40,161 bases of DNA from Tubiluchus corallicola. Lineage: Eukaryota > Animalia > Priapulida. Positions 1 to 27,209 of the stretch are shown one piece after another; the first letter of the stretch is position 1; each line of letters opens with the position of its first letter. The DNA lies in assembly GCA_030141605.1 (NCBI GenBank), contig JAQGDQ010001457.1, positions 1 through 40,161 on the forward strand. Reading direction: 5' to 3'. The notes under the pieces are model-generated. The model worked only from the letters and a program-made list of their open reading frames with translations. It had not been told where the DNA came from and searched no databases. The position numbers and the translations under genes are program-made.

Positions 1-2559
1 GTGAGATATCAAAAATTATTATATTATATGCACGAAATTTACCCTCAAGCTCTGACGTAGGTATTACTCTTTTGTATGACAGGTGAAATTTTATTTTATC
101 TAGCAGGTCACTAAACATTGTTGGTGTCATTTGCTTGCAATTTAAAAAATCATTTGGTCGTGTCTGCTCTTAATTCTTGAAATATTTGGTAATAGCTTCC
201 TTTGTGTTTCTTCGTTGCAACCATTTTTAACACGCAACATTTTTTTATATGCCTTTGCTCTACCTTTACAGAAGCACATGTTGTGCGAACGTGACAAAGC
301 ATATTAGCTTATGCTTTCTAAATTTGAACCACGAAGCGCCATAAGTAGAGAAATCATTTACATAATTTTTGAATACTTCCTTTGGTAAAGAAAGAGGTGA
401 GGCACAGGGCAGAGCACATTCACTCAAAGAGGTGATAAGCAAAGGAAAAGACGTTTGCGCTGCCTCTGTGATTTGACATACAGGAAACATTATTATTAAC
501 ATTGCACTGTACTTCATTTTAGACTAGGAAACAAGTTGTGATCTTTACCTAAATGTTTGGAACAAATACTGTTCTTCTCAAGTAATAGTAAGCCTATGTA
601 AGCTTTATGCATGTAGCACCTGGTAACAACTGCCATTGACCAAACAGAAGAAATAGGCAACTGACTTGACACTAGAAAACAGCAAGTTTCTTCCCTCATC
701 AGCAACTTCTATAATCTGAAACAGAAAAACGGCAACTCAAACATTTTAACAATAAAATATTGGGACAAACAACTACTACTATATTTTAATTTAGTTTGAT
801 ATGACTGATTCATATTAAGTTGTAAGTGAAGTGCAAAATATTTTATTAAAAATTAACTTAACAATTGTTTAGCAAAATTAACAAAAACTCATAAAAACAT
901 GTATAACAGTTAATTAAATGTAATAACTCATTCTGTACGTATTCTGTGCTCATTCTCTACAAAAGTATGGACTTAATGTCTATTTCATTTGTAGATACAT
1001 GTAGTAACAGCTTTTCTATATTTGCTTTAAAATGACAAAGGTGGTACCTATGCAATGACACAATTAAAAAAGACACCATTTTTACAACATCTAGTAACAA
1101 CTAATTAACATTGGTGTGGAAACTGATGTTTGTGGCTGCATGGTGAAATGAAGACAGAGCACCTAGAAAGGAACAGGAAATTCATAATAAGATTTATAGA
1201 TACAGAGGTACCAGAAGGTAGAAATTCAAGGAAAGCTTATCGAAAGTTTCTTCTGGTCCTTATAATAATTGACAAACCAAAGAGGTGAGATATCAAAAAT
1301 TATTATATTATATGCACGAAATTTACCCTCAAGCTCTGACGTAGGTATTACTCTTTTGTATGACAGGTGAAATTTTATTTTATCTAGCAGGTCACTAAAC
1401 ATTGTTGGTGTCATTTGCTAATAGCTTCCTTTGTGTTTCTTCGTTGCAACCATTTTTAACACGCAACATTTTTTTATATGCCTTTGCTCTACCTTTACAG
1501 AAGCACATGTTGTGCGAACGTGACAAAGCATATTAGCTTATGCTTTCTAAATTTGAACCACGAAGCGCCATAACTAGAGAAATCATTTACATAATTTTTG
1601 AATACTTCCTTTGGTAAAGAAAGAGGTGAGGCACAGGGCAGAGCACATTCACTCAAAGAGGTGATAAATAAAGGAAAAGACGTTTGCGCTGCCTCTGTGA
1701 TTTGACATACATGAAACATCATTATTAACATTGTACTGTACTTCATTTTAGACTAGGAAACAAGTTGTGATCTTTACCTAAATGTTTGGAACAAATACTG
1801 TTCTTCTCAAGTAATAGTAAGCCTATGTGAGCTTTTTGCATGTAGCACCTGCTAACAACTGCCATTGACGAAACAGAAGAAATAGGCAACTGACTTGACG
1901 CTAGAAAACAGCAAGTTTCGTCCCTCATCAGCAACTTCTATAATCTGAAACAGAAAAACGGCAACTCAAACAACTTAACAATAAAATATTGGGACAAACA
2001 ACTACTACTATATTTTAATTTAGTTTGATATGACTGATTCATATTAAGTTGTAAGTGAAGTGCAAAATATTTTATTAAAAATTAGCTTAACTATTGTTTA
2101 GCAAAATTAACAAAAACTCATAAAAACATGTATAACAGTTAATTAAATGTAATAACTCATTCTGTACGTATTCTGTGCTCATTCTCTACAAAAGTATGGA
2201 CTTAATGTCTATTTCATTTGTAGATACATGTAGTAACAGCTTTTCTATATTTGCTTTAAAATGACAAAGGTGGTACCTATGCAATGACACAATTAAAAAA
2301 GGCACCATGTTTACAACATCTAATAACAACTAATTAACATTGGTGCAGAAACTGATGTTTGTGGCTGCATGGTGAAATGAAGACAGAGCGCCTAGAAAGG
2401 AATAGGGACTTCATAATAAGATTTATAGATACACAAGTACCAGAAGGTAGAAATTCATAGAAAGATTATAGAGAGTTTCTTCTGGTTCTTATAATAATTG
2501 AGAAACCAAAGAGGTGGGATATCAAAAATTATTATATTATATGCACGAAATTTACCCTC

Positions 2560-2857
2560 AAGCTCTGACGTAGGTTTTACTCTTTTGTATGACAGGTGAA
2601 ATTTTCATTTTATCTAGCAGGTCACTAAACATTGTTGGTGTCATTTGCTTGTAATTTAAAAAATCATTTGGTCGTGTCTGCTCTTAATTCTTGAAATATT
2701 TGGTAATAGCTTCCTTTTGTGTTTCTTTGTTGCAACCATTTTTAACACGCAACATTTTTTCTATGCCTTCGCTCTACCTTTACAGAAGCACACGTTGTGC
2801 AAACGTGACAAAGCATATTAGCTTATGCTTTCTAAATTTTGAACCACGAAGCACCAT
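2560..2857 (-). pseudogene. Decayed PIF/Harbinger (HARBI1-like) transposase N-terminal fragment, present in each macrosatellite unit (about 45..342, 1329..1571, 2560..2857, 3844..4146, 5522..5823)
   Basis: Frame-hopping translation gives ..RRHRKKC.V.KWLQ(R/Q)RNTKGSYYQIFQELRADTT/NDFLNYKQMTPTMFSDLLDKMKISPVIQKS(N/K)T. This matches the Harbinger N-terminal pattern W-V-x-x-W-L-x-x-R-x-x-x-G-x-Y-x-x-L-x-x-E-L ... F-x-N-Y-x-R-M-x-x-x-x-F-x-x-L-L-x-x-I-x-P-x-I-x-K-x-D-T. It contains frameshifts and stops, and no DDE core is visible. Confidence 0.72.
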
Positions 2858-4814
2858 AACTAGAGAAGTCATTTAGCTAATTTTTGAATACTTCCTTTGG
2901 TAAAGAAAGAGGTGAGGCACAGGGCAGAACACATTCACTCAAAGAGGTGATAAGTAAAGAAAAAGACGTTTGCGCTGCCTCTGTGATTTGACATACAGGA
3001 AACATTATTATTAACATTGCACTGTACTTCATTTTAGACTAGGAAACAAGTTGTGATTTCTACTTAAATGTTTGGAACAAATACTGTTTTTCTCAAGTAA
3101 TAGTAAGCCTATGTGAGGTTTATGCATGTAGCACCTGCTAACAACTGCCATTGACAAAACAGAAGAAATAGGCAACTGACTTGATGCTAGAAAACAGCAA
3201 GTTTCTTCCCTCATCAGCAACTTCTATAATCTGAAACAGAAAAACGGCAACTCAAACAACTTAACAATAAAATATTGGGACAAACAACTACTACTATATT
3301 TTAATTTAGTTTGATATGACTGATTCATATTAAGTTGTAAGTGAAGTGCAAAATATTTTATTAAAAATTAACTTAACTATTGTTTAGCAAAATTAACAAA
3401 AACTCATAAAAACATGTATAACAGTTAATTACATGTAATAACTCATTCTGTACGTATTCTGTGCTCATTCTCTACAAAAGTATGGACTTAATGTCTATTT
3501 CATTTGTAGATACATGTAGTAACAGCTTTTCTATATTTGCTTTAAAATGACAAAGGTGGTACCAATGCAATGACACAATTTAGAAAGACACCATGTTTAC
3601 AACATCTAATAACATCTAATTAACTTTGGTGCGGAAACTGATGTTTGTGGCTGCATGGTGAAATTAAGACGGAGCGCCTAGAAAGGAATAGGGAATTCAT
3701 AATAAGATTTATAGATACACAGGTACCAGAAGGTAGAAATTCAAGGAAATCTGATCGAATGTTTCTTCTGGTCCTTATAATAATTGACAAACCAAAGAGG
3801 TGAGATATCAAAAATTATTATATTATATGCACTAAATTTACCCTCAAGTGCTGACGTAGGTATTACTCTTTTGTATGACAGGTGAAATTTTCATTTTATC
3901 TAGCAGGTCGCTAAACATTGTTGGTGTCATTTGCTTGTAATTTAAAAAATTCATTTGGTCGTGTCTGCTCTCAATTCTTGAAATATTTGGTAATACCTTC
4001 CTTTTGTGTTTCTTCGTTGCAACAATTTTTAACACGCAAAATTTTTTTTCTATGCCTTCTCTCTACCTTTACAGAAGCACATGTTGTGTGAACTTGGCAA
4101 AGCATATTAGCTTATGCTTTCTAAATTTTGAATCACGAAGTGCCATAACTAGAGAAATCATTTACCTAATTTTTGAATACTTCCTTTGGTAAAGAAAGAG
4201 GTGAGGCACAGGGCAGAACACATTCACTCAAAGAAGTGACAAGTAAAGAAAAAGACGTTTGCGCTGCCTCTGTGATTTGACACACAGGAAACATTATTAT
4301 TAACATTGTACTGTACTCAATTTAAGACAAGGAAACAAGTTGTGATTTCTACTTAAATGTTTGGAACAAATACTGTTCTTCTCAAGTAATAGTAAGCCTA
4401 TGTGAGGTTTTTTGCATGTAGCACCTGCTATCAACTGCCATTGACGAAACAGAAGAAATAGGCAACTGACTTGACACTAGAAAACAGCAAGTTTTTTTCC
4501 CTCATCAGCAACTTCTATAATCTGAAACAGAAAAACGGCAACTCAAACATCTTAACAATAAAATATTGGGACAAACAACTACTACTATATTTTAATTTAG
4601 TTTGAAATGACTGATTCATATTAAGTTGTAAGTGAAGTGCAAAATATTTTATTAAAAATTAACTTAACAATTGTTTAGCAAAATTAACAACAACTCATAA
4701 AAACATGTATAACAGTTCATTACATATAATAACTCATTCGGTATGTATTTTGTGCTCATTCTCTACAAAAGTATGGACTTACTGTCTATTTCATTTGTAG
4801 ATAAATGTAGTAAC

Positions 4815-5233
4815 TGTACTACATTTAAACTCCAGAACATCAAATGTTTAACATGCAGCAATTGTCGTTTCATCTGTAATAATAAATTACAGCAATAAGT
4901 TTTCAATGAAAAAGATAAGTTTGATAAAGGTACATTACGAAATTAGCTAACGTGATTATCGTCTATAATTGTACAAAAAAATGACAGCTAAATTGTTCTA
5001 ATAGCATAAAGTAGTTCAATAAACATAATTAGACACTTACATGTGGTCTCCCTGAGTTTTGGCACTTATAACTTGCAAGAAAAAACAATAAGAAATCAAC
5101 AACAACATTCACATCATATCAATTGAATTGCATGTCAGGTAATGTCTACCTGGCCAACTACCTGGTCACATGACTGATGACAGTTAAAAGGGCAAGACTA
5201 CATTTAATAGGTAGGGAAACGTGTATGTGCTTA
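4815..5233 (-). mobile_element. Isolated, 3-bp-truncated copy of the BEL/Pao LTR inside macrosatellite unit 4
   Basis: 419 bp matching 6491..6909 with 2 substitutions. It has the same left junction GTAGTAAC|TGTACTAC. The right end lacks the terminal ACA and rejoins the unit at GGTGGTACC, with about 31 bp of host unit missing. Confidence 0.95.
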
Positions 5234-6490
5234 GGTGGTACCTATGCAATGACACAATTAAAAAAGACACCATGTTTACAACATCTAATAACAACTAATT
5301 AACATTGGTGTTTAAATTGATGTTTGTTTCTGCATGGTGAAATGAAGACGAAGTGCCTAGAAAGAATAGGGAATTCATAATAAGATTTATAGATACACAG
5401 GTACCAGAAGGTAGAAATTCATAGAAAGCTTATAGAGAGTTTCTTCTGGTCCTTATAATAATTGACAAACCAAAGAAGTGGGATATCAAAAATTATTATA
5501 TTATATGCACGAAATTTACCCTCAAGCGCTGACGTTGGTATTACTCTTTTGTATGACAGGTGAAATTTTCATTTTATCTAGCAGGTCGCTAAACATTGTT
5601 GGTGTCATTTGCTTGTAATTTAGAAAAATCATTTGGTCGTGTCTGCTCTTAATTCTTGAAATATTTGGTAATAGCTTCCTTTTGTGTTTCTTCGTTGCAA
5701 GCATTTTTAACACGCAACATTTTTTTCTTTGCCTTCGCTCTACCTTTACTGAAGCACATGTTGTGCGAACGTGACAAAGCATATTAGCTTATGCTTTCTA
5801 AATTTTGAACCACGAAGCACCATAACTAGAGAAGTCATTTAGCTAATTTTTGAATACTTCCTTTGGTAAAGAAAGAGGTGAGGCACAGGGCAGAACACAT
5901 TCACTCAAAGAGGTGATAAGTAAAGAAAAAGACGTTTGCGCTGCCTCTGTGATTTGACATACAGGAAACATTATTATTAACATTGCACTGTACTTCATTT
6001 TAGACTAGGAAACAAGTTGTGATTTCTACTTAAATGTTCGGAACAAATACTGTTCTTCTCAAGTAATAGTAAGCCTATGTGAGGTTTTTTGCATGTAGCA
6101 CCTGCTAACAACTGCCATTGACAAAACAGAAGAAATAGGCAACTGACTTGACACTAGAAAACAGCAAGTTTCTTCCCTCATCAGCAACTTCTATAATCTG
6201 AAACAGAAAAACGGCAACTCAAACATCTTAACAATAAAATATTGGGACAAACAACTACTACTATATTTTAATTTAGTTTGAAATGACTGATTCATATTAA
6301 GTTGTAAGTGAAGTGCAAAATATTTTATTAAAAATTAACTTAACAATTGTTTGGCAAAATTAACAACAACTCATAAAAACATGTATAACAGTTCATTACA
6401 TGTAATAACTCATTCTGTACGTATTCTGTGCTCATTCTCTACAAAAGTATGGACTTACTGTCTATATCATTTGTAGATAAATGTAGTAAC

Positions 6491-6912
6491 TGTACTACAT
6501 TTAAACTCCAGAACATCAAATGTTTAACATGCAGCAATTGTCGTTTTATCTGTAATAATAAATTACAGCAATAAGTTTTCAATGAAAAAGATAAGTTTGA
6601 TAAAGGTACATTACGAAATTAGCTAACGTGATTATCGTCTATAATTGTACAAAAAAATGACAGCTAAATTGTTCTAATAGCATAAAGTAGTTCAATAAAC
6701 ATAATTAGACACTTACATGTGGTCTCCCTGAGTTTTGGCACTTATAACTTGCAAGAAAAAACAATAAGAAATCAACAACAACATTCACATCATATCAATT
6801 GAATTGCATGTCAGGTAATGTCTACCTGGCCAACTACCTGGTCACATGACTGATGACAGTTAAAAGGGCAAGACCACATTTAATAGGTAGGGAAACGTGT
6901 ATGTGCTTAACA
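6491..6912 (-). repeat. 3' LTR (422 bp)
   Basis: On the minus strand it reads TGTTAAGCAC...GTAGTACA, is preceded by the PPT, and differs from the 5' LTR at 3 positions. Confidence 0.97.
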
Positions 6913-6920
6913 CCGCCCCC
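6913..6920 (-). promoter_or_regulatory. Polypurine tract (plus-strand primer site)
   Basis: GGGGGCGG on the minus strand directly abuts the TGTT start of the 3' LTR, about 40 nt after the pol stop codon. Confidence 0.88.
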
Positions 6921-6962
6921 ATAAATGTCTCCACGAGCATTTATCACCTAACAAAAAAGCAA

Positions 6963-8594
6963 TCACACGTTCATCATCTGACCTTCAATGAAACACAACT
7001 TGTGTATAGGACGTTTAAGAAACCCCTCTTTGGTTTTCAAGGTGACACTCCTCACCAGACCATCCTTACTGACGTGGGTTTTTACAACACGTCCAAGCAG
7101 CCAACAATTTCTTGGAGTTGTATCCATAATTAGAACAACGTCATCCTCCTTGAGATTCTGTTTTTCTTTGTGCCATTTTGAACGTTGTTGGAGCATCGGC
7201 AAATACTCTAATTTCCAGCGATTCCAAAATACATTAGAAAGATATTGTATCTGTCGCCACTTTTTCATATAAACACCTCCTGCAGAAAACTGACCCAGTG
7301 GAAGTATTGGAGGAGCACTTCCGCCCATCAGAAGGAAGTGGTTAGGTGTTAAAGAATCATAATCATTCGGATCATCAGACGCTGTGGTCAGAGGTCTTGT
7401 ATTGACTATGTTCTCGACAATACAGAATAAGGTGCTCAAACCCTCATCATCAAGTACCTGCTCTTGAGCCACTGAGTGCAGAACTTTTTTAACACTTTTA
7501 ATTAGTGCTTCCCAAGCTCCTCCCATATGAGATGCCCGAGGAAGACAAAAGTCCCAATCAATATGTTTCTGAAGTAAGTTTTCCGTGACAACGTTGGTGT
7601 TCCAAGATTCTACAGACTTTTGGAGCTCTTTGTCTGCTCCCAAAAAATTACTTCCACAATCAGACATTAGTTTGTCAGGTTTACCTCTTCTGGAGCAAAA
7701 CCTATCTAGTGCTTTTATGAACGAATCAGTTGTCATCGTGAACAAAACTTCAAGATGGATGCGTCTGCTAGCCATACATGTGAAAAGGATGCCGTAACGT
7801 TTTACTTCTGAGCGACCACGTTTTACCATAATTGGACCAAAGCAATCAGTACCCACAGTAGCAAACACTCCAGAGCTTTGCAATCTGTCTACAGGCAAGT
7901 CAGCCATCTTCTGGTGTAGTGGAATTGCCCTATTCAGTCTACATTGTCTGCACTCAGCTAAAAGCTTGCGTACCATGCCACGCATTCCAATAATCCAAAA
8001 CTTCTGGCGGATCAAAGACATTACATGCTGTTTGCCGACATGTCCATGCGTGGTGTGGAAATCTTGGATGACTAAACGTGATAATTTATGTCCTTTTGGT
8101 AAAACAATTGGATGCCTCACATTATAGTTGACATCAGCACGCCTTATTCGGCCACCTACACGAATAAGTTGCTTTTCACATAGGAATGGATCAAGTTTCA
8201 CCAGACAACTAGACTTAATAACGTTCTGACTAGTGCTTAAGTCTTTATATTCTTTCGGCAAACTCTCTTTCTGCACATACTTGATTATTTCTTCTTCGGC
8301 ATAGTCGAGTTCTGCAACAGTCAGTTTATTTGGAAAACTCGAAGTCTTTTTGGCAACTTTGTTCTTTAGCACTGTTTTGAACCGAAGAAACCATGCAACA
8401 CTTTTCTTCAACTTGTAGAATGAAGAATAACGATCCATCAAATCATTTATGATAATATGCTGTCGCTGTGTGTCATCCATTGTCGTCGCTGTTATTGTAT
8501 TAACAACTGGAGAGTGCTTCACTTCTTTGTCACCTTGTAATAAATCCTTCTGTGTAGTCATATCAATTCGAGGCCAATCATCTTCTGGAAGCAT
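6963..8594 (-). CDS. pol: Pol C-terminal part: integrase (HHCC, D,D35E) plus DUF5641 tail; the frame extends upstream to about 8708 (EQWRYVPSEENAADDLSRG)
   Basis: FHTTHGHVG...CRQC zinc finger; GTDCFGP, MSDCGSNF and GGAWEALIKSVK catalytic motifs; LTPNHFL; WRQIQYLSNVFWNRWKLEYL; W.LGRV..RPIHKL tail. Confidence 0.96.
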   Translation of the reverse strand: MLPEDDWPRIDMTTQKDLLQGDKEVKHSPVVNTITATTMDDTQRQHIIINDLMDRYSSFYKLKKSVAWFLRFKTVLKNKVAKKTSSFPNKLTVAELDYAEEEIIKYVQKESLPKEYKDLSTSQNVIKSSCLVKLDPFLCEKQLIRVGGRIRRADVNYNVRHPIVLPKGHKLSRLVIQDFHTTHGHVGKQHVMSLIRQKFWIIGMRGMVRKLLAECRQCRLNRAIPLHQKMADLPVDRLQSSGVFATVGTDCFGPIMVKRGRSEVKRYGILFTCMASRRIHLEVLFTMTTDSFIKALDRFCSRRGKPDKLMSDCGSNFLGADKELQKSVESWNTNVVTENLLQKHIDWDFCLPRASHMGGAWEALIKSVKKVLHSVAQEQVLDDEGLSTLFCIVENIVNTRPLTTASDDPNDYDSLTPNHFLLMGGSAPPILPLGQFSAGGVYMKKWRQIQYLSNVFWNRWKLEYLPMLQQRSKWHKEKQNLKEDDVVLIMDTTPRNCWLLGRVVKTHVSKDGLVRSVTLKTKEGFLKRPIHKLCFIEGQMMNV

Positions 8595-8647
8595 CAGGAA
8601 TCTAGGTCCGAATTTCCAGCGTTTCGACTCTAACAGTGCATAAGCAT

Positions 8648-9280
8648 TTAGTCCTCGAGATAGGTCGTCAGCTGCATTTTCCTCAGAAGGGACATATCTC
8701 CATTGCTCTGTGAGACCTCTAGAATGCTTGTGACCCTCTTCTGCACGAAGGTATGAAAGCGCTTGACAGTATTTCGTATGTAGTGCAAGATAATTAGACT
8801 ATCCGTCCAAAATATTGACCTGTCAATGTGGATGGTAAGCTCTTTCCGTAGCACCTTTTCAAGTTTAGCTGCAAGAGCTGCTGCACATAACTCCAGGCGA
8901 GGAATAGTCAGTCCTTTCATCGGAGTTAGCCTTGATTTCGCAATGACAAATGCAGTGTGGATAACGTTGAGCTCATTCTGCTGACGAATGAACACTACCA
9001 CACCATAAGCACTTTCAGAAGCGTCACAAAAATAATGAAGCTCTGTGGATATCACCTTACCAAACTCACGAGGCATGAATGATCTCTCAATCTTGAAATC
9101 TGTTAACAGTGTGCTTTCGTCTTTCCATTGTTTCCATTTCTTCTCAATGGCGCCGTCCAACTTGCTATCCCACGTTTTGTCTGGTAAACGACATTCTTCT
9201 TGAAACAGTTTCTTTCCTTGCAGAACAAATGGGCCACACATTCCAAGGGGATCATAGATACTGGAAAGAGAACTAAGCAA
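8648..9280 (-). CDS. pol: Pol fragment: RT connection and RNase H (Pao Peptidase_A17 region); frameshifted at both ends
   Basis: TKRGLLSSLSSIYDPLG, LHYFCDASESAYG, AKSRLTP..TIPRLELCAA, FWTDS, FHTFVQKRV. Confidence 0.95.
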   Translation of the reverse strand: MLSSLSSIYDPLGMCGPFVLQGKKLFQEECRLPDKTWDSKLDGAIEKKWKQWKDESTLLTDFKIERSFMPREFGKVISTELHYFCDASESAYGVVVFIRQQNELNVIHTAFVIAKSRLTPMKGLTIPRLELCAAALAAKLEKVLRKELTIHIDRSIFWTDSLIILHYIRNTVKRFHTFVQKRVTSILEVSQSNGDMSLLRKMQLTTYLED

Positions 9281-10308
9281 TCCACGCTTTGTATTGGGAT
9301 GCTCCTTTTGTTTACATGGACGCCTAGCGTATCAGCCTCCATCTGCCAACTTATCCCCAAGGCACGCTCATTCGGCAGTGTGTCATGTGACAAGTTTAGA
9401 TCTTTAACACCTTTTCCCCTATCTTCAATTGGGATAGTGTCGAGAACACGTTTATCATTTGACATCCATTTCGTCAAACAAAATCCACCCTTCTGCAAAA
9501 GCAGCTTTAGCTGAGTAATTAGCTTCAATGCTTGCTCTACATTTTCGACTGACTTTAGGCAGTCATCCACATAAAAATTGTAAAGCACAGTTGCTACCGT
9601 TTCTTTATCAAAGCTGTATTGGTAGTCCAATGCAGTGCGTTTCAAGGCAAATGACGCCGCACTGGGGGACCAAGCCCCTCCAAAAAGGTGCACGGTCATT
9701 CTAAGTATCTGAAGAGGCTGGTCAATTCGTCCCTCAGGCCACCAAATGAACCTCAGCATATCTCTATGCTTGGGCGAAACAAACACTTGGTGATACATCT
9801 CACGTATATCTGCTAGCACGGCAACTGGATACTGCCTAAATCGCAAGAGGACACCAACCAAATTATTCGTAAGGTCAGGACCTTGCAAAGCCAATTTGTT
9901 CAGTGAGATACCTTCGCACTCTGCACCGCAATCAAAAACAATACGGGTTTTATCTGGTTTATTTTCGTTAAAGACTGGGAAGTGAGGAAGATACCAAGTC
10001 AGATGTGTAGGAGTACTTGCTGATTGTTCTTCCACTAGCTCTGCATGACCCTTGTTTAGCAAATCGTTGATTCCGTCAGTGTACTTTTGATGAAGAATGG
10101 GATTCTTGGTGAATTTTCTTCTGAGTCCATTGAGCCGTTTTGCTGCCATCTGAAAGCTATCAGGAATAACATTATGTTTGCCTTTAAATGGTATTTCTAA
10201 CTCATAGTGGCCGTCTCTTCTGGTTATTGAGCTTTCCCAAATATCGATGACCATCATCTCTTCTCTAGAATACTGCTCATCATCCAAACAGAATCTATTT
10301 TCCAACAT
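9103..10308 (-). CDS. pol: Pol fragment: reverse transcriptase; true coding span about 9306..10290
   Basis: WYLPHFPV..KPDKTRIVFD, SLNKLALQGPDL, LLRFR, ADIREMYHQV, HLFGGAWSP, FYVDDCL (YVDD at 9562..9573), GGFCLTKWMSN, ALGISW. Confidence 0.96.
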   Translation of the reverse strand: MLENRFCLDDEQYSREEMMVIDIWESSITRRDGHYELEIPFKGKHNVIPDSFQMAAKRLNGLRRKFTKNPILHQKYTDGINDLLNKGHAELVEEQSASTPTHLTWYLPHFPVFNENKPDKTRIVFDCGAECEGISLNKLALQGPDLTNNLVGVLLRFRQYPVAVLADIREMYHQVFVSPKHRDMLRFIWWPEGRIDQPLQILRMTVHLFGGAWSPSAASFALKRTALDYQYSFDKETVATVLYNFYVDDCLKSVENVEQALKLITQLKLLLQKGGFCLTKWMSNDKRVLDTIPIEDRGKGVKDLNLSHDTLPNERALGISWQMEADTLGVHVNKRSIPIQSVDCLVLFPVSMIPLECVAHLFCKERNCFKKNVVYQTKRGIASWTAPLRRNGNNGKTKAHC

Positions 10309-13300
10309 CTCTCGACTTGCTGCTGCAAGACATCTGTTTTGGCTTCAGAAGACTCTTTGACCAGAACATAATTATTTACTGACACGTTGTGTACTTTGCT
10401 GCCCGCTATAGGCCCATTCAACGTCCACCCCAGCTTCGTCTTAACAGCATAAGGAGCGTTTACAGGACCACGTCTAACTTGCAGAGGGGCCAAGGCATCA
10501 GGTACGTCAAGACCGATTAGTAAGCTTAGGTCTTCATCTTGTCCGTGATACTCAACTAAAGATGACGCTATCTCTTTCAAGTGCGGCCATTTTTGAACAT
10601 CTGCGACTGATGCCAAGCATTCTGTATCTAGCATCAGTGACTGTCGAACAAAAACATGAGGCAACATGATTCTGTTTTCACCAATGCTGTCCGTAACAAC
10701 GAAACTTGTAACTAAAGTGTCTGCTTTACTTTGGCGTTTCTCGATTGTGGTTAGGGTAAGAACATCCTCTTTTCCTTCAGCACTTATGCTGTCAAACAGC
10801 TTCCTGGAACAAAACGTGTTTGTAGATCCAGGATCTAACAAAGCCATGGCTTCAACTGGCTTTCTTCCATGTACATGTACTTGAACTTTGACCATAGGCA
10901 ATGCTATCCTCTTTCCTTTAGAACTGCCCCTATTTGCACAGCTTGTAGCTTCAGTCTCGTCTTTTCTTTGCTGCTCATCCCTGGCAAGCCTATTAACATC
11001 TGAAGAAGAACTGCTCAGCCTTCCCACTGCATCGTGCAATAAAGCTGAATGCTTCTTGTTGCATTCATTAACACTACAAGACGGTTTGAAACATCTAGCT
11101 GCTCTATGTTTTCCTTTCGCCAAACAATTAAAGCAGAGGCGTTCCTTACGCACGAACATCAACTTAGCTGGGGTGTCCATAGCTGCAAAAGCTTCACACT
11201 GTCCAAGAGAAGAATGCTCATTTGAGCTGCAAAATATGCAAACTTTCTTGCAAAATTGGGCGCTTTTGGTTTGCGGCTTTTCTTGATTTGCTTTCGCCTT
11301 GCCATTGTTTGCTTGAACTTGAGGTGCTTTAGCAGAGGTGGCATAATTTTTGGCAGAGATGCTTCGTTTAGGTTTTTCCCAATCGCCGAGGCTACCATAC
11401 ACAGGGTGGTTCATTTTTTCAGCATTTTCCTGAATGAATGTTAGCAAATCATAAATACATGGGTTTCTGATTTCATGTTTTCCTATCCTGGACACCACGT
11501 CTTTCCATTTATCATGGAATTTGTATGGCAGTTTTTTAACAATCTGAACGAGACTTGTCTGTGTATTAATTTCGCTGAGATTATTCATTGCTTTCAACGT
11601 CTCGACACAGCTTAAAAGCAAGTCAGCAAATTCTCGCAGCTTCTCGTTGTCATTGGCCTTGATTTGGTCAAACTCGATTATTTTTGACATCCAAGCCTGA
11701 GTAACCATAAACGAAGAGCCGAACCTGTCGATGAGTAACTGCTTTGCATGCTTGTATGCTCGACTGGGGTCCATGTAGCTACAACTTTCCACAACTTTTT
11801 TGGCTTTTCCAGTGCAAAATTGCATTAATCTCTGAAACCTTGCAGCCTCATCTTGTGTGTAGCTCTCGACGTTGGCTTCAAAACGTCGCATGAATTGCCA
11901 AAAGTTTAGAACGTTACCATCAAATTTGTCCAACTCCGCTATTGGAAGTTGCATTGCTTTGTACATGTTGGTATGTTGACGTTGTGCTTCAAGCATGATG
12001 TTCATAATCATAGCCATGTCATTGCTCTGTGGATGGCATTGATTAGGCATGTCGCTTAAATTATCAGTACAAATGGTAGGTTGAGTAGAATTAAAGGCAT
12101 AACTATTCTCGCGCGGTATATTACTGCCATGCGCTAGTGGAATAAAAGCAGACGCTGATGCATTCAGACACTGATTTCCAGAACTTGGATGCTGCATAGG
12201 CAAACGAATATTTTTGTTTTCCAGCAGTGGCCTAACGTCAGTATCAAAGATCTGTATCCACTTGTTCATTATGTCGAATTCATAACCTTTTTTGCCAACA
12301 GGTGGCGCCACGTGAGCTGTATGCGAATCGTGTTCAATATAGTGCCATGGTTTATGTTGACCTAAAAAATGAGCAATTTTTACATTTTTCCCAAATTGCA
12401 TTAAAGCTGGTAAATATTCGTACCGACCCTGAATGACAGCATTATAAGTGAATGGCAAATGTTTTTCATAACTAGTTGACCAGTCTTTAAAAAACTGATT
12501 CAATAATCCTTGGTCCCCACCATCAAAAGTACAGGATTCTGATTTAGCATACAACATTAACTTATTATACATATCAATACTTGGTTTGTAAACAAACACA
12601 CCAGAGTTAAAGCAATCTGGCCAGCCTACATCAGGGGCAGCTGAAAGCCCTTTAAATCTAAACATGTCATCAACATTATCTAATACAATTGTATCAGAAT
12701 CTACAAATACACATTTGCTAAATTGTGTCAACCTCCAACAATGTAGCTTAGTAAAACTCACATTAAGTTCTGGTCTTCCTAACAATTGTAACCTTTTAAA
12801 CTCATGACTATCAATAATACTGACATGTTCAACCAAATCAAATGCATTTCTCAAAAGTGTCATAATATCACAAGAAATACCCTCTGTTACCATGATGACT
12901 AAGCATCTCATTGTTCCTGTGCGACGCAAACTAGAAGCAAGAACAAGTGCTCCCAACGCATACTTATCAGTAGTTGCTAAAGTAACAAAGGCCTCAGACA
13001 AGTAATTCTCATCGCTTTCGCGTGTAGTTTGTGTATGTTTAATTGTCGGATCCGTGTATGTTGACCTTGACCTTAGCCATGCTTTGACCTTTGAGTCTGA
13101 TGTTCCATGGTCCACTAACCTGGTCCCAACATCAGCTGCAGAACCAAAGCTGTCTTCATCACGTTCATCTTCAGAACTACACTCATTCTGCATGCGTTCA
13201 TGTCGTATTCTCATCGCTTGGAGTTTGAGTTCTTGTTCTTTAATCATGAGCTCTTGGTTTCTTAGCTTGGCACTCTTCTTCGATGACGTCACACTCGAGG

Positions 13301-13556
13301 ATTTGGTGGACTTTTCGCTCCTACGTTTCTCTTGCATGGGTTGGTCAGTTGCTATTGAGGGTGGCGATAAATCAGCTGATTCATCTGGAGCGCCTGGTAT
13401 ACAAGGACCGGTTTCCTGTTGCTTCAAAATTCGTTGCACTAAATTTGCCTTGTTGCCAGAAACCGACAAAGACATACTACGAAGAATTTGCCTCAGCTCC
13501 TCAACTACTTTATTTTCCAGTTCGCTTTTAGTGAATAACACTGATGCCATTTTCAC
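10254..13556 (-). CDS. gag: Gag-protease part of the polyprotein: SAP, coiled/acidic linker, glycogenin GT8 domain, PAM2-like motif, DUF1759 Gag core, 3 Zn knuckles, aspartic protease
   Basis: Uninterrupted 1100-aa ORF starting about 250 nt inside the 5' LTR boundary. Motifs include LPIAELDKFDGN..FW.F..RF, CIFC..H..C / CFNC..H..C / C..C..H..H, ALLDPGS and AVKTKLGWTLNGP. The last ~10 codons are out of frame. Confidence 0.96.
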   Translation of the reverse strand: MKMASVLFTKSELENKVVEELRQILRSMSLSVSGNKANLVQRILKQQETGPCIPGAPDESADLSPPSIATDQPMQEKRRSEKSTKSSSVTSSKKSAKLRNQELMIKEQELKLQAMRIRHERMQNECSSEDERDEDSFGSAADVGTRLVDHGTSDSKVKAWLRSRSTYTDPTIKHTQTTRESDENYLSEAFVTLATTDKYALGALVLASSLRRTGTMRCLVIMVTEGISCDIMTLLRNAFDLVEHVSIIDSHEFKRLQLLGRPELNVSFTKLHCWRLTQFSKCVFVDSDTIVLDNVDDMFRFKGLSAAPDVGWPDCFNSGVFVYKPSIDMYNKLMLYAKSESCTFDGGDQGLLNQFFKDWSTSYEKHLPFTYNAVIQGRYEYLPALMQFGKNVKIAHFLGQHKPWHYIEHDSHTAHVAPPVGKKGYEFDIMNKWIQIFDTDVRPLLENKNIRLPMQHPSSGNQCLNASASAFIPLAHGSNIPRENSYAFNSTQPTICTDNLSDMPNQCHPQSNDMAMIMNIMLEAQRQHTNMYKAMQLPIAELDKFDGNVLNFWQFMRRFEANVESYTQDEAARFQRLMQFCTGKAKKVVESCSYMDPSRAYKHAKQLLIDRFGSSFMVTQAWMSKIIEFDQIKANDNEKLREFADLLLSCVETLKAMNNLSEINTQTSLVQIVKKLPYKFHDKWKDVVSRIGKHEIRNPCIYDLLTFIQENAEKMNHPVYGSLGDWEKPKRSISAKNYATSAKAPQVQANNGKAKANQEKPQTKSAQFCKKVCIFCSSNEHSSLGQCEAFAAMDTPAKLMFVRKERLCFNCLAKGKHRAARCFKPSCSVNECNKKHSALLHDAVGRLSSSSSDVNRLARDEQQRKDETEATSCANRGSSKGKRIALPMVKVQVHVHGRKPVEAMALLDPGSTNTFCSRKLFDSISAEGKEDVLTLTTIEKRQSKADTLVTSFVVTDSIGENRIMLPHVFVRQSLMLDTECLASVADVQKWPHLKEIASSLVEYHGQDEDLSLLIGLDVPDALAPLQVRRGPVNAPYAVKTKLGWTLNGPIAGSKVHNVSVNNYVLVKESSEAKTDVLQQQVERCWKIDSVWMMSSILEKR
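10400..10910 (-). other. Retropepsin-type aspartic protease domain
   Basis: LPMVKV..AMALLDPGSTNTF (catalytic Asp codon 10833..10835), LLIGLD, AVKTKLGW. Confidence 0.88.
11034..11240 (-). other. Triple Cys/His zinc-knuckle (nucleocapsid) region typical of BEL/Pao
   Basis: CIFCSSNEHSSLGQC, CFNCLAKGKHRAARC, CSVNECNKKHSALLH. Confidence 0.93.
11390..11950 (-). other. Gag core (DUF1759-like)
   Basis: LPIAELDKFDGNVLNFWQFMRRFE...LMQFCTGKAK..V...AY..AK.LL..RFG...IVKKLP....KW...HPVYG. Confidence 0.9.
12222..13001 (-). other. GYG: Glycogenin (glycosyltransferase family 8) catalytic domain embedded in Gag, aa 186-445
   Basis: Colinear with animal glycogenin-1 as recalled: EAFVTLATTDKYALGALVLASSL, RPELNVSFTKLHCWRLTQFSKCVFVDSDT, LSAAPDVGWPDCFNSGVFVY, FDGGDQGLLNQFF, KHLPFTYN, YEYLPA, KIAHFLGQHKPW, W..IF...V.PLL. 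Confidence 0.96.
13416..13520 (-). other. SAP (SAF-A/B, Acinus, PIAS) nucleic-acid-binding motif at the Gag N-terminus
   Basis: LENKVVEELRQILRSMSLSVSGNKANLVQRIL fits the SAP consensus L..L.V.EL+..L+..GL..SG.K..L+.RL. Confidence 0.85.
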
Positions 13557-13809
13557 TTGAAATTAAATTGCTCTTAGTGTCAATTTTGCAAAAAATTTAG
13601 GATCACTTTTCAAGACCGAAGCGCCATCTATTGCCCATTAGCTGACGTGTCCAAGTTCACAGAGTTCATGCAGCTTTACCTGTAGAAACCAGCTACGCTG
13701 TAGAAGCCCATAATGAGCAAAGCTATCAGGTAAGCATGTCAAACTTCCTGCACCTGAACCAGGTCACTGCTTAATGGCAACTTGAAACTCCCGGCGAGGT
13801 ATATAAAAC

Positions 13810-14231
13810 TGTACTACATTTAAACTCCAGAACATCAAATGTTTAACATGCAGCAATTGTCGTTTTTTCTGTAATAATAAATTACAGCAATAAGTTTTCA
13901 ATGAAAAAGATAAGTTTGATAAAGGTACATTACGAAATTAGCTAACGTGATTATCGTCTATAATTGTACAAAAAAATGACAGCTAAATTGTTCTAATAGC
14001 ATAAAGTAGTTCAATAAACATAATTAGACACTTACATGTGGTCTCCCTGAGTTTTGGCACTTATAACTTGCAAGAAAAAACAATAAGAAATCAACAACAA
14101 CATTCACATCATATCAATTGAATTGCATGTCAGGTAATGTCTACCTGGCCAACTACCTGGTCACATGACTGATGACAGTTAAAGGGGCAAGACCAAATTT
14201 AATAGGTAGGGAAACGTGTATGTGCTTAACA
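13810..14231 (-). repeat. 5' LTR (422 bp)
   Basis: Direct repeat of 6491..6912 with TGT...ACA termini, upstream of gag on the minus strand. Confidence 0.97.
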
Positions 14232-14552
14232 CTGCGGGATGGGAAAGCCACGCATCTGTCCTTCAACAAGTGCATGAGTTGGAAACTAGGTTGAATAGGT
14301 ACTGTAAGTACTGCAGGATGGGAAAGCCATGCATCTGTCCATCAACAAGTGCATAAGTTGGAAACTAGGTTGAATAGGTACTGTAAGTACTGCAGGATGG
14401 GAAAGCCACGCATCTGTCCTACAACAAGTGCATAAGTTGGAAACTAGGTTGAATAGGTACTGTAAGTACTGCAGGATGGGAAAGCCATGCATCTGTCCAT
14501 CAACAAGTGCATAAGTTGGAAACTAGGTTGAATAGGTACTGTAAGTACTGCA
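14232..14552. repeat. 79-bp tandem repeat, 4 copies plus 5 bp
   Basis: CTGC(A/G)GGATGGGAAAGCCA...GGTACTGTAAGTA starts at 14232, 14311, 14390 and 14469, with a partial at 14548. Confidence 0.97.
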
Positions 14553-14968: not shown

Positions 14969-17900
14969 AAATCTATTGTCAGTTATTGCTGAGATTAAGT
15001 TATTAAAATATCTTTTTTTCTTGAAGTTTGTAATGACTCTGCGCTAAACTAGTACAGCTAAACGAATCAGCTTAGCGCGATCTTTGCGCAGTTTTTGCGC
15101 GATCTTTGCGCAGTTTTTGCGCAATCTTTGCACAGTTTTTGCGCAATCTTTATGCAGTTTTTGCGCGATATTTGCACAGTTTTTGCGCGATCCTTTGCAC
15201 AGTTTTTGCGCAGTTTTTGCGCAATCTTTGCGCAGTTTTTGCACGATCTTTGCGCAGTTTTTGCCCGATCTTTGCACAGTTTTTGCGCGATCTTTGCACA
15301 GTTTTTGCGCAGTATTTGCGCAATCTTTCCGCAGTTTTTGCGAGATCTTTGCGCAGTTTTTGCGCAATCTAGCGCAATTTTTTGCGGGATCTTTGCGCAG
15401 TTTTTGCGCAATCTAGCGCAATTGTTGCGCGATGTTTGCACAGTTTTTGCGTGATCTTTGCACAGTTTTTGCGCGATGTTTGCACAGTTTTTGCGCGATG
15501 TTTGCACAGTTTTTGCGCGATCTTTACCCAGTTTTTGCGGGAGTTCTTGACGGAAAATTTCTATTGTCAGTTATTGCTGAGATTAAGTTATTAAAATATC
15601 TTTTTTTCTTGAAGTTTGTAATGACTCTGCGCTAAACTAGTACAGCTAAACGAATCAGCTTTGCGCGATCTTTGCGCAGTTTTTGCGCGATCTTTGCGCA
15701 GTTTTTGCGGGATCTTTGCACAGTTTTTGCGCAATCTTTATGCAGTTTTTGCGCGATATTTGCACAGTTTTTGCGCGATCTTGCGCAGTTTTTGCGCAAT
15801 CTTTGCGCAGTTTTTGCTCGATCTTTGCGCAGTTTTTGCCCGATCTTTGCACAGTTTTTGCGCGATCTTTGCACAGTTTTTGCGCAGTATTTGCGCAATC
15901 TTTGCACAGTTTTTGCGCAGTTTTTGCGGGATCTTTGCGCAGTTTTTGCGCAATCTAGCGCAATTTTTGCGCGTTGTTTGCACAGTTTTTGCGTGATCTT
16001 TGCACAGTTTTTGCGCGATGTTTGCACAGTTTTTGCGCGATCTTTACCCAGTTTTTGCGGGAGTTCTTGACGGAAAATTTCTAGTGAGTGTGAACGTTGG
16101 GCAGAGCTAAACAGTTGCTAAATGTACCGTCTGGCATTTCACCATGACAAATTCCTGTCGCTTTGATAGGAATCATATCCTTGAAGTTTGTTATGACTGC
16201 GCTAAACTAGTACAGCTAAACGAATCAGCTTTGCGCGATCTTTGCGCAGTTTTTGCGCAATCTTTGCGCAGTTTTTGCGCAATCTTTGCACAGTTTTTGC
16301 GCAATCTTTATGCAGTTTTTGCGCGATATTTGCACAGTTTTTGCGCGATCCTTTGCACAGTTTTTGCACAGTTTTTGCGCGATCTTGCGCAGTTTTTGCG
16401 CAATCTTTGCGCAGTTTTTGCGGGATCTTTGCGCAGTTTTTGTGCAATCTAGCGCAATTTTTGCGCGATGTTTGCACAGTTTTTGCGTGATCTTTGCACA
16501 GTTTTTGCGCGATGTTTGCACAGTTTTTGCGCGATGTTTGCACAGTTTTTGCGCGATCTTTACCCAGTTTTTGCGGGAGTTCTTGCGGAATTTCTTTGTA
16601 GTTATTGCTGGATTGTTATTAAATTTTTTTTCTTGAAGTTTGTAATGACTCTGTGCTAAACTGTCAGCTAAACGTCAGCTTAGCGTGATCTTTGCGCAGT
16701 TTTGCGCGATCTTTCGCAGTTTTGCGCAGTTTTTGCGCGATCTTTGCACAGTTTTTGCGCGATCTTTTTGCAGTTTTTGCGATCTTTGCACAGTTTTTGC
16801 GCGATCTTTGCACAGTTTTTGCGCGATCTTTGCGCAGTTTTTGCGCAATCTTTGTGCAGTTTTTGCGCGATCTTTGCACAGTTTTTGCACAATCTTTTTG
16901 CAGTTTTTGCGCAATCTTTGCACAGTTTTTGCGAGACCTTTGCACAGTTTTTGCGCGATCTTTGCAGTTTTTGCGCGATCTTTGCACAGTTTTTGCGCGA
17001 TCTTTGCGCAGTTTTTGCGCGATCTTTGTGCAGTTTTTGCGCGATCTTTGCACAGTTTTTGCGTGATCTTTGCACAGTTTTTGCGCGATCTTTGCACAGT
17101 TTTTGCGCGATGTTTGCACAGTTTTTGCGCGATCTTTACCCAGTTTTTGCGGGAGTTCTTGACGGAAAATTTCTATTGTCAGTTATTGCTGAGATTAAGT
17201 TATTAAAATATCTTTTTTCTTGAAGTTTGTAATGACTCTGCGCTAAATGATCTTTGCGCAGTTTTTGCGGATCTTTGCAGTTTTGTGCGATTTTGCGCAG
17301 TTTTGCGCAATCTTTGCACAGTTTTGGGTTTTTGGGTTTTGGTTTTGGGTTTTGGTTTGTTTTGGTTTGTTTTTGCACGATCTTTGCGCAGTTTTTGCCC
17401 GATCTTTGCATTTTGCGCGATCTTTACAGTTTTGCGCGAGTATTTGCGCAATCTTTGCGGTTTTTGACTCTTTGCGCAGTTTTTGCGCAATCTTTGCACA
17501 GTTTTTGCGGGATCTTTGCGCAGTTTTTGCGCAATCTAGCGCAATTTTGCGCGATGTTTACTGTTTTTGCGTGATCTTTGCACAGTTTTTGCGCGATGTT
17601 TGCACAGTTTTTGTGCGATCTTCCAGTTTTGCGGGAGTTCTTGACGGAAAATTTCTAGTGAGTGTGAACGTTGGGCAGAGCTAAACAGTTGCTAAATGTA
17701 CCGTCTGGATTTCACCATGACAAATTCCTGTCGCTTTGATAGGAATCATATCCTTGAAGTTTGTAATGACTCTGCGCTAAACTAATACAGCTAAACGAAT
17801 CAGCTTAGCGCAATCTTTGCGCAGTTTTTGCGCGATCTTTGCGCAGTTTTTGCGCGATCTTTGCGCAGTTTTTGCGCAATCTTTGTGCAGTTTTTGCGCA

Positions 17901-19380
17901 ATCTTTGCACAGTTTTTGCGCGATCTTTGCACAGTTTTTGCGCAATCTTTGCGCAGTTTTTGCGCAGTTTTTGCGCGATCTTTGCACAGTTTTTGCGCGA
18001 TCTTTGCGCAGTTTTTGCTCGATCTTTGCAGTTTTTGCGCGATCTTTGCACAGTTTTTGCGCAGTATTTGCGCAATCTTTGCACAGTTTTTGCGCACTCT
18101 TTGCGCAGTTTTTGCGCAATCTTTGCACAGTTTTTGCGGGATCTTTGCGCAGTTTTTGCGAAATCTTTGCGCAATTTTTGCGCGATGTTTGCACAGTTTT
18201 TGCGTGATCTTTGCACAGTTTTTGCGCGATGTTTGCACAGTTTTTGCGCGATCTTTGCCCAGTTTTTGCGGGAGTTCTTGACGGAAAATTTCTAGTGAGT
18301 GTGAACGTTGGGCAGAGCTAAACAGTTGCTAAATGTACCGTCTGGCATTTCACCATGACAAATTCCTGTCGCTTTGATAGGAATCATATCCTTGAAGTTT
18401 GTTATGACTGCGCTAAACTAGTACAGCTAAACGAACCAGCTTTGGGCGATCGTTGCACAGTTTTTGCGCGATCTTTGCACAGTTTTGGCGCAATCTTTAT
18501 GCAGTTTTTGCGCGATCCTTGCACAATTTTTGCGCAATCTTTGCACAGTTTTTGCGCGATCTTTGCACAGTTTTTGCGCAGTTTTTGCGCGATCTTTGTG
18601 CAGTTTTTGCGCGATCTTTGCACAGTTTTTGCGCGATCTTTGCACAGTTTTTGCACAGTTTGTGCACGATCTTTGTGCAGTTTTTGCGCGATCTTTGCAC
18701 AGTTTTTGCGCGATCTTTGCACAGTTTTTGCGCGATCTTTGCGCAGTTTTTGCGGGATCTTTGCGCGATCTTTGCGCAGTTTTTGCGGGATCTTTGCGCG
18801 ATATTTGCGCAGTTTTTGCGCAATCTTTGTGCAGTTTTTGCGTGATCTTTGTGCAGTTTTTGCGCGATCTTTGCACAGTTTTTGCGCGATCTTTTTGCGC
18901 AGTTTTTTGCGCGATCTTTCCACAATTTTTGCGCAAGCTTTGCACAGTTTTTGCGCGATCTTTTTGCACAGTTTTTGCGCTGTTTTTGCGCAATCTTTGC
19001 GCAGTTTTTGCGCGATCTTCGCACAGTTTTTGCGCAGTTTTTGCGTGATCTTTGTGCAGTTTTTGCGCGATCTTTGCACAGTTTTTGCGCGATCTTTGCA
19101 CAGTTTTTGCGCAGTTTTTGCGTGATCTTTGTGCAGTTTTTGCGCGATCTTTGCACAGTTTTTGCGCGATCTTTGCACAGTTTTTGCGCGATCTTTGCGC
19201 AGTTTTTGCGCGATCTTTGCACAATTTTTGCTCAATCTTTACGCAGTTTTTGCGGGAGTTCTTGATGGAAAATTTCTAGTGAGTGTGAACGTTGGGCAGA
19301 GCTAAACAGTTGCTAAACGTACCATCTGGCATTTCACCATGACAAATTCCTATCGCTTTCATAGGAATCATATCCTTGAA
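14969..19380. repeat. Composite satellite: 7 blocks of a 22-bp (2x11) repeat GATCTTTGC(G/A)CAGTTTTTGCGC separated by two types of ~100-175-bp linker
   Basis: Blocks at about 15074-15540, 15661-16058, 16231-16575, 16681-17151, 17249-17632, 17807-18270 and 18442-19253. All linkers begin GGGAGTTCTTG; linker order is A,B,A,A,B,B. Confidence 0.96.
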
Positions 19381-20099
19381 TGATACAGTTGAAATCATTT
19401 ACCGTGCAATACTGCTATGACATTTGCAAAGAAACTGCAACTAAAGTTTTTTGCGATAATATTAAGTGCAGTAAGAGATTGTGAGTGCAAAATGTGTGAT
19501 TCCATTCAAAAATTGAAAATTTCGTCTCTGTGAGAAGTAAATTATTCTTCGTGCTGAGATCATTCGCGTATTGTTGCGTATTCGTGTTCGTTTTGCCTGA
19601 GAAATAAATTGTGGCTGAGTTGCATTTTTTGTGAATTCAAGCGAGGCTATTGCAGCACTTTACTTGGCCTAGCGTTATACAAATATTTTAATACTATTTA
19701 TTATGACACAAGTTTAATGCAATATCATTTAAAGGATCAGTTCTGTTACCATATTTAGAGTTTTAACCAATAACTTTCCTTCTCTTATTCATACATCATG
19801 TCTACGTTTTTAGTACAATAATTATTGAGATACTTACTTATAATGTAATTATTTCGCACTTCATACTTCAAGTTTCCAGCATTCTGTCTTAAGGGTCAGT
19901 TAAATAAAATGGAAAATAATGAGGTCTTCTAAGAGCCAAGAGTCTTTTGCACGGACATAACTAAGTGATTACAGTTGTGTTTGGAAGAATATCCAATCAA
20001 CCTATTTTTTAGACATTTATAAGTGATTTACAAAACAAAAGGTTTTGTTTTACTTTATTTTGCTAGTTGGAAAATCATTTGCGAGAGCTGCTGGCAATG

Positions 20100-20621
20100 A
20101 ATACAATATGGAAACAGCTTACATAACAAAGCATCATAATTTTTTTAGAGTAATGCTTTCGAATGCTGTTGTGCGTGCAGTAAGCCCATCACACCTTGCA
20201 TGGTGCTTCTATCTTGCACGAAAATAATAAGAAAACAGTTCATTTTGCCATTTAACAAAGCTTTATCATTTTTGCAGAGTACTGGCTTTAAATGCATACG
20301 TTGGTTGTGTGCATTGTAAAACCATCTGAACCTGCACTGCGCTGCCATCTGGCAAAGGAAATAATATGATCATAGTCTTGACTGCACTTGACTGTTATGC
20401 CTACGGTAAGTTCATCACACGTTGCACTGTGCTGACATCTGGCAACGGAAATAATATAAAAACAGCCCATGATGCCGTGTAACAATGTTTCGTAATTTCT
20501 GTAGAGTACTGGTTTTAAATCCGCTTGACTGTTATGCGCATAGTAAGTTCATCACACCTTGCACGGTGCTGCCTTCTGGCATTGGAAATAACATAAAAAC
20601 AGCTTATGATGTTGTGTAACA
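20100..20621. repeat. Old degenerate tandem repeat (unit about 90-140 bp)
   Basis: A GTAAGTTCATCACACCTTGCAC.GTGCTGCCATCTGGCA..GGAAATAAT-like core recurs near 20180, 20320, 20406 and 20543. Confidence 0.7.
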
Positions 20622-21593
20622 TAAATAAGATTTTTTAATTTGCTTTAACTTACGAAAAATTTGAAATATGAGCTGTATACAAAGCTCGCACACCAAGCAC
20701 AAGAGTCACCTGCAATAATTGATTATAATCTCTGTAAATTCGAGTCTGAGAAATAAGTCTTATTGGTGTGGCGCCACCTAACAAAGAAACTGCTGAAATT
20801 GCATTACTTGCTACATGTATAAAAAGGCGACAATTTTCTTACTGCAGAATTATGAATTTAAAAGTATAAAGCTTGCAGAGGGAACAACAATAGCCAAAGT
20901 GACAACATTAGCGTCACCATCATCATCAGCATAGCAGCAACAGCAGTGATAACAACCGCACCAATGACAGCAATAATGTGAGTGACAAGTAGAAGGTCGA
21001 GCAGCTGCAGCGACAGTGACAACGACCATATAGTTGTTTCAAAATTATTTATTATATATCGAACATGCCAGTTCAAATTTTGGGTGTTACCCAGTAGTTC
21101 ACACGTGCTGCTAAGATTGTTGTGAAATTTGCTGAACCTTCAAAAAGAGGTATTATTATTATTATCAGCTTATCAATCGTTATTAAATTCCAGACAGAAT
21201 TATAAAGGATTAAAATCTTTCTTTGTCGGCAGGGAGTTAACCTACCACTCAGGTAAATACTTCAAAAGGATTATAAATAAGCTGCTCCTTTGTGTGCAGA
21301 GAGCGCGTCTCAAGTTGTCTCCAATTTAATGTTTTGCGGAATTTGCCGCAAAGTTTATAAACTTCAAAAGTCGGTGTTATTATTTCAGCCCTTATTAAAT
21401 TTCAGATAAAATTGCTGAAAGTTATAATCTTTCTTTGTGCGCAGGGCGTGAACTGAATCTCGAGTGAAATGCTTTAGAAGACTTTAATAACCATCGGGCT
21501 AGGGTTAGAGCAGCAATCATGATTGGTCTGCAATTTGTCATTTTAGAAAATCTGCCGCCAGGATTATAAATTTTAAATGTAAATTCCAAGTTC

Positions 21594-27029: not shown

Positions 27030-27209
27030 CTGATAAAATTTGAACTGAAAGCATTTTCTGGGTAGATTTTTGAATGGCGAATTTTGGGATGTGTTAAAAA
27101 TGATAATCCAGATTTAGAAAACATTCAAAAATTCAGACTTTTGAAGAGCAAACTAACAGGTTCTGCTCTTAGTGCATTAGAAGGTTTTTCATTCAGTAGT
27201 GAAAATAAT
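27030..27209 (+). pseudogene. gag: Decayed gag (DUF1759) fragment of a second, different BEL/Pao family
   Basis: Translates as LIKFELKAFSG*IFEWR/FWDV..DNPDLENIQKFRLLKSKLTGSALSALEGFSFSSEN, matching the pattern LPK.EL..FSG....W..FWD.F...+H.N..L..+QKF.YL+S.L.G.A...+.G......NY. It has one stop plus indels and is not in the supplied ORF track. Confidence 0.8.

Follow-up and report, generated by a model that had tools for sequence, protein, structure and literature searches.

Within the window (the whole 40,161-nt stretch of Tubiluchus corallicola DNA analysed here), a BEL/Pao LTR retrotransposon encodes the catalytic domain of animal glycogenin in frame inside its Gag protein. The fusion is real and is carried by a multi-copy family, and sequence comparison indicates that the domain is under purifying selection as a protein. 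With moderate confidence, we read this family as having likely captured a glycogenin mRNA and retained its product as a Gag module predicted to form dimers and to glucosylate itself. Most host fragments found in LTR elements are decaying passengers of crippled elements; here, a core enzyme of energy storage lies inside the structural protein of a family that has kept its pol, and it is more conserved than pol. This configuration points to an unrecognised connection of retrotransposon particles with glycogen or with a coat of sugars and, if particles self-glucosylate as predicted, to what is likely a new use of host metabolism by a mobile element.

The glycogenin domain and its place in Gag

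The element spans positions 14231-6491 on the minus strand, between paired LTRs that differ at 3 positions (Table 1). Its BEL/Pao membership is indicated by LLDxG and LIG protease motifs, by the order PR-RT-RH-IN and by matches to the family profiles DUF1759, Peptidase_A17 and DUF5641. ORF1 comprises, in order, a SAP domain, a Ser-rich stretch with a predicted coiled coil, the glycogenin domain, a linker, the Gag core, zinc knuckles and the protease.

Table 1. Coordinates of the element's features in the window.
Feature	Position	Strand	Details
5' LTR	13810..14231	-	422 bp, TG...CA
ORF1	10254..13550	-	1098 aa from Met (13550-10257 without stop); 1102 aa stop to stop
SAP domain	13422..13505	-	aa 16-43; Pfam; also in BEL relatives P0134 and P0192
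Glycogenin catalytic (GT8) domain	12222..13001	-	aa 184-443
PAM2-like motif LNASASAF	12144..12167	-	aa 462-469; part of ancestral Gag linker
DUF1759 Gag core	11496..11924	-	aa 543-685; Pfam
Triple Cys-His box	11034..11240	-	aa 771-839; boxes at aa 771, 806, 825; definition from PMC554778
Aspartic protease motif LLDPGS	10824..10841	-	aa 904-909
pol	6963..10344	-	RT (YVDD), RNase H (PF05380), integrase, DUF5641
Polypurine tract	6913..6921	-	adjoins 3' LTR
3' LTR	6491..6912	-	422 bp, TG...CA; outer flank is a unit of the 1.29-kb tandem array
Solo LTR, same family	4815..5233	-	first 3 nt lost; outer flank the same as that of the 3' LTR
Target-site duplication, one copy	14232..14236	+	CTGCG, 5 bp, within 79-bp tandem repeat

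The preliminary description of this DNA had recognised a 260-codon, stop-free and intronless segment inside both LTRs as animal glycogenin (GT8), and our searches bear out this identification. Its placement and reading frame were right, with a residue numbering (aa 186-445) that was off by two. Pfam returned SAP, Glyco_transf_8 (PF01501, 8e-15) and DUF1759 on ORF1 in that order, the arrangement that the description had predicted. A phmmer search against the PDB matched glycogenin-1 over segment residues 3-260 (E 4.3e-83), with the next family, the Skp1 galactosyltransferase, reaching 1.9e-26 only. Moreover, an AlphaFold model of the domain, built from an alignment of 41 glycogenin-type rows, had a mean pLDDT of 83.7 and superposed on rabbit glycogenin with a TM of about 0.89. 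The likeness to animal glycogenin-1 extends from the fold and about 52% identity to the catalytic residues, acceptor tyrosine and dimer contacts; the element's domain differs in lacking the synthase-binding tail and introns, in being embedded in Gag and in evolving faster.

With numbering taken from the PDB alignment, the domain matches human GYG1 at 14 of the 15 positions checked, the exception being T83, replaced by Ser. The metal ligands D284-S-D286 (DxD) and H394 are present, as are K400, D343, D346, Q347, N315, Y377, Y379 and W310. Among these, Y377 corresponds to the acceptor tyrosine Y195, and Y379, D343 and W310 correspond to the dimer contacts Y197, D160 and W128. According to PMC12267440, glycogenin builds a short chain on Y195 from UDP-glucose, uses Y197, D160 and W128 as dimer contacts and binds glycogen synthase through its C-terminal domain. 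A search of the window in six frames gave no glycogen-synthase-binding motif, which 113 of 131 host glycogenins have; in long host isoforms it is internal, outside the last 45 residues. The element therefore carries a glycogenin-derived catalytic domain, not a complete glycogenin. In addition, the lid region and the loop at 296-301 contain unusual replacements. Human GYG2, as described in PMC12267440, keeps the same residues and barely self-glucosylates, so conserved residues need not mean activity.

The architecture of related elements defines the site of insertion. Read by eye, related BEL Gags contain an optional SAP domain, a Ser-rich and a coiled-coil-like stretch, a variable low-complexity linker and the DUF1759 core, the linker before the core reaching about 580 aa. 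ORF1 of the window has every one of these ancestral features, with glycogenin between the coiled-coil region and the PAM2-like motif; the domain is an insertion into the variable N-terminal linker of Gag. The GC3 of the domain is 0.29, compared with 0.37-0.45 across the remaining element. A PAM2-like motif of the type LNPxAxE[WF] occurs in the Gag linker of 15 of 54 BEL relatives (P0124-P0143 and others), against 0.5 expected after shuffling. PAM2 is a ligand of poly(A)-binding protein, and the motif, present in the window as LNASASAF, may recruit PABP to Gag.

Copies of the family and selection on the domain

Copies were assessed on contigs of public sequencing runs aligned to the window; X1 and X2 come from one sample, which may be the window's own source, and X4 and X5 from other studies. 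The preliminary description had made its case depend on spanned junctions and on further copies, and both were found. Two X4 contigs, of 700 nt (11815-12515) and 1115 nt (12725-13837), bridge the C-terminal and N-terminal junctions of the domain, respectively, and an X1 contig of 874 nt (12154-13027) holds the whole domain with 68 nt beyond one junction and 26 beyond the other. An X5 contig runs from the domain end into a homologous Gag linker with a small indel (read by hand); it leaves the N-terminal junction uncovered and shows that the diverged X5 copy is element-borne on its C-terminal side. Beyond the 5' end of the LTR (14231-14233), 11 contigs of X1, 11 of X2 (7 + 4) and 9 of X4 carry different sequence, which indicates several insertion sites of the family; some of these flanks may belong to solo LTRs. 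The cargo contig of X1 has a depth of 1053, against 926-1389 for other major gag/pol contigs and 96-197 for minor variants, contig depth being a rough guide only to copy number. None of the 15 joints listed, out of 17, skips the cargo. In X5, the element has a depth of 11-25 and the putative host glycogenin gene 21.8, so this sample may hold one or two copies only; its pol is about 88% identical to that of the window, with few gaps.

The very high depth of X4 over the domain was considered as amplification or expression and rejected, since it is confined to a narrow, symmetric peak near 12620 in which reads run through into the adapter. This peak (12480-12770) probably reflects hybrid capture with a bait directed at the best-conserved glycogenin motif; if so, a phylogenomic glycogenin probe pulls down this transposon in this species.

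The copy in the window is itself broken: its pol is split over three frames beyond that of ORF1, with breaks near 10285, 9310 and 8710, so that gag-pol occupies four frames. High-depth run contigs differ in length from the window at all three breaks, which therefore look private to this copy or to the assembly. A one-base gap at 11925 interrupts a high-depth X4 contig that covers the linker and the start of Gag, marking a broken copy in that sample. The TGG start of a tRNA primer-binding site was not found directly after 13810. The window's two element flanks have no target-site duplication in common, the second CTGCG copy lying outside the window. In an X1 contig (depth 101), the opposite LTR end adjoins the 79-bp repeat, which stops at the same five bases as those beside the 5' LTR. 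The insertion thus probably had the usual 5-bp duplication, and the 3' side of the window has been recombined or mis-joined. Because the 3' LTR may derive from another insertion, LTR identity was not used for dating.

Since Gag and Pol must be read through the domain, its open frame alone proves nothing. Between X5 and the window, the glycogenin contig differs at 44 of 591 positions, compared with 516 of 4323 over six gag/pol contigs (p 0.0009; 0.03 when the RT contig is the only one compared). This count omits two 5'-side X5 contigs, one of which (13400-13865) has 48 differences in 471 positions. The 35 differences listed, out of 54 in the domain, comprise 27 synonymous and 8 non-synonymous changes, none of them at the 14 catalytic or contact residues, and yield a dN/dS of 0.065-0.10 (p 2e-9 or less). 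If the other 19 were all non-synonymous, the ratio would be 0.25-0.36 (p 0.0005 or less). These values come from one pairwise comparison, and even the worst case of 0.36 lies below the ratio near 1 that the preliminary description had named as counting against its proposal.

Compared with host glycogenins, conservation is incomplete. The element keeps 98 of 117 conserved glycogenin columns, with 19 replaced, where the median host keeps 116, and its branch length is 1.87 against a median of 0.29; the long branch and the replaced columns indicate that constraint has been relaxed or shifted. Retention of the 14 key residues is not significant alone (chance about 0.27), as 91% of other invariant columns are also kept. 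A comparison independent of X5 nevertheless points to selection as well: where eight lophotrochozoan-type proxies are invariant, the element retains 73 of the 80 columns that are also invariant in other animals but 21 of the 31 that vary there (p 0.006).

Donor, precedents and searches for related fusions

Phylogenetic reconstruction places the domain among animal glycogenins; the tree does not resolve the donor phylum. X5 holds a second, more canonical glycogenin that matches the element at 80% only over windows of 36-53 nt. Its hand-translated loose ends, LFEYEEL and FRPNLET, lie in frame around a WPDCFNSG motif, and what is apparently another X5 contig carries the element's unusual PPVGKKGYE loop followed by an LWW motif. 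The aromatic residue of LFEYEEL matches F299 of the element, in a column where 91% of 131 hosts have Arg and none has Phe. The odd loop and the aromatic residue, common to both sequences, point to a capture, long ago, from the lineage's own glycogenin, which on this sequence evidence is the likely donor; alternatively, the canonical X5 glycogenin may belong to another element family. Capture from a spliced host mRNA had been proposed before. Animal glycogenin genes have introns within the catalytic domain, and the intron loss is deduced from this general background. For splicing-out of the cargo, a rough pattern search showed donor- and acceptor-like sites that are weak only. We also considered that small RNAs against the element might strike the host gene, holding it hostage. 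This idea is disfavoured by the 80% match over 36-53 nt only and by selection acting on the protein.

In Tan et al. 2016 (PMC5131818), template switching onto co-packaged mRNA is presented as the established route for captures by LTR elements. LTR-mediated retroposition as described there resembles the present case in that part of a host mRNA sits in frame within an LTR element, with template switching as the likely route. The chimeras in that text are young and are described as behaving like non-autonomous elements; here, in contrast, the family has retained pol, its cargo is far diverged from the host gene and purifying selection is strong. Host-type enzymes kept by an LTR family are also known from an AlkB demethylase in orchid Gypsy elements (PMC9289625) and from a GDSL esterase and a DEDDy exonuclease in rotifer LTR elements (PMC5408684). 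As described in these papers, the enzymes are separate ORFs acting mostly on nucleic acids or membranes, whereas the present one belongs to carbohydrate metabolism and is fused within Gag. Enzyme capture by an LTR element is thus known, and the cargo, its position and its constraint are what is unusual here.

Compared with BEL/Pao elements (Belpaoviridae, e.g., Sinbad) as described in PMC554778 and PMC3118150, the element has the same triple Cys-His box, LLDxG protease, PR-RT-RH-IN order and LTRs. We collected 103 BEL relatives with up to 39% identity over Gag-protease; glycogenin occurred in 0 of 103, and no captured Pfam enzyme was found in the long N-termini of the 24 scanned. One set of relatives (P0148, P0153, P0154 and P0164) includes a BEL polyprotein labelled Streptococcus dysgalactiae, likely a contamination; where others are annotated as BEL polyproteins fused with valine-tRNA ligase (Schistosoma) or with ATG7 (Nymphon), errors of the gene models are the likely cause.

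The preliminary description knew of no LTR element with a glycogenin cargo, and neither our protein nor our literature searches turned one up. HMMER with the whole ORF1 against 1.84 billion representatives gave no fusion, with gag-only or glycogenin-only proteins in the best 150 of 17,190 matches; a fused relative of like divergence would sum both scores and so rank first. A protein word-index search returned host glycogenins throughout the 120 matches listed of 821; none of 53 BEL proteins retrieved in this way had PF01501, and none of the 11 matches longer than 1922 aa had BEL domains. Of 304 proteins retrieved, 201 match the glycogenin part only, 103 the Gag part only and 0 both. Among the papers listed, no title or opening of an abstract describes a glycogenin-carrying LTR element, a record of which subscription papers, supplements, Repbase, Dfam or GyDB may hold; in PMC8220671, the string 'glyco' is absent from the main text. 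None of 63 pattern matches in a metagenome scan was confirmed, and the ESM Atlas gave no usable match. A viral scan gave a single weak match among 56 (29 residues, E 8e-5), to the GT8 FDGGDQG region on viral contig L001 (5001-5093).

Possible functions and genomic surroundings

The retained acceptor tyrosine and dimer contacts, together with the missing synthase-binding tail, suggest a Gag module that would dimerise and self-glucosylate; the lack of that tail makes short chains on the particle more likely than full glycogen. On this reading, reverse transcription would have switched templates onto a glycogenin mRNA and so copied it, in frame and without its synthase-binding tail, into the length-variable linker between the Gag coiled coil and the capsid core. 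With pol kept, the family would have continued transposing with its cargo. The domain would be made with every Gag, pair with that of a neighbouring Gag or with host glycogenin, and transfer glucose from UDP-glucose into short alpha-1,4 chains on Y377. In Ty1 and Ty3, the N-terminal part of Gag faces outward; by this analogy, the glycogenin domain would sit on the particle surface. As a guess, Gag could then be cross-linked and the particle coated with short glucose chains. The likeliest gain, itself a tentative guess, would be that particles under assembly dock in germ cells on stores of glycogen or on proteins that bind it; the gain could alternatively lie in cross-linking during assembly or in shielding. 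It is rather doubtful that the whole sequence of events would hold, with an autonomous retrotransposon whose capsid polyprotein self-glycosylates in the cytosol and whose maltosaccharide coat docks on germline glycogen, steering particles to oocytes or early embryos.

Other readings of the same data carry less weight. The domain might be a non-catalytic binding module: by dimerising, or by attaching to host glycogenin or to glycogen, it would cross-link Gag or position it and add little or no glucose. Such a role would fit the kept contacts W310, D343, Y377 and Y379 and the replacements in the lid region and loop 296-301, and GYG2 is a precedent for a conserved yet nearly inactive glycogenin (PMC12267440). 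We nevertheless regard it as rather unlikely, given that D284, D286, H394 and every sugar-binding residue have stayed in place over a long branch, the metal- and sugar-binding residues being unchanged relative to X5 among the 35 differences listed of 54. It is also improbable that the insert is useless to the element, a trapped passenger kept open and folded since Gag-Pol is translated through it. Its in-frame position upstream of essential Gag and Pol, its relaxed conservation relative to hosts and the tolerance of length in relatives' linkers, where as much as about 580 aa can precede the Gag core, would agree with this. Against it stand the low dN/dS, a divergence below that of pol, the retention of polar active-site residues and the lack of any cargo-free joint among the 15 listed of 17, when a useless 780 bp would be easily lost.

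Selection could also arise if one or a few copies acted as an extra host glycogenin. The near single-copy depth in X5 would suit such a domestication, which we consider very improbable because X5 also has pol (about 88% identity, few gaps), because X1, X2 and X4 have many insertion sites and because the synthase-binding tail needed for normal priming is absent. Finally, the window's flanks, with no common target-site duplication and a rearranged or mis-joined 3' side, might raise the suspicion of a glycogenin retrocopy joined to the element by assembly error or contamination. This is hardly credible, as each of the two junctions is crossed by a single contig of X4, a separate study, and the C-terminal junction recurs in the diverged X5 copy. 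A selected, predicted self-glucosylating and dimerising Gag module remains the reading we prefer.

In the 5' leader (13810-13551), a donor-like site lies near 13679 and an acceptor-like stretch just before the ATG; a further stretch near 13630 resembles a CTCF site. No host gene was seen among the ORFs listed for the remaining window, and long ORFs over the satellite arrays were rejected as genes, being repeat artefacts. These arrays occupy 15075-23703, 27206-30918, 32693-34549 and 35839-36516, with periods of 11/22, 75, 29 and 26 bp. The 5' LTR was inserted into a 79-bp tandem repeat present in 4 copies (14231-14552). On the other side, positions 1-6912 form a 1.29-kb tandem array, of which one unit took up an LTR, the unit losing 30 bp and the LTR 3 bp; this LTR-bearing unit was then duplicated, and the second LTR is now the 3' LTR of the element.
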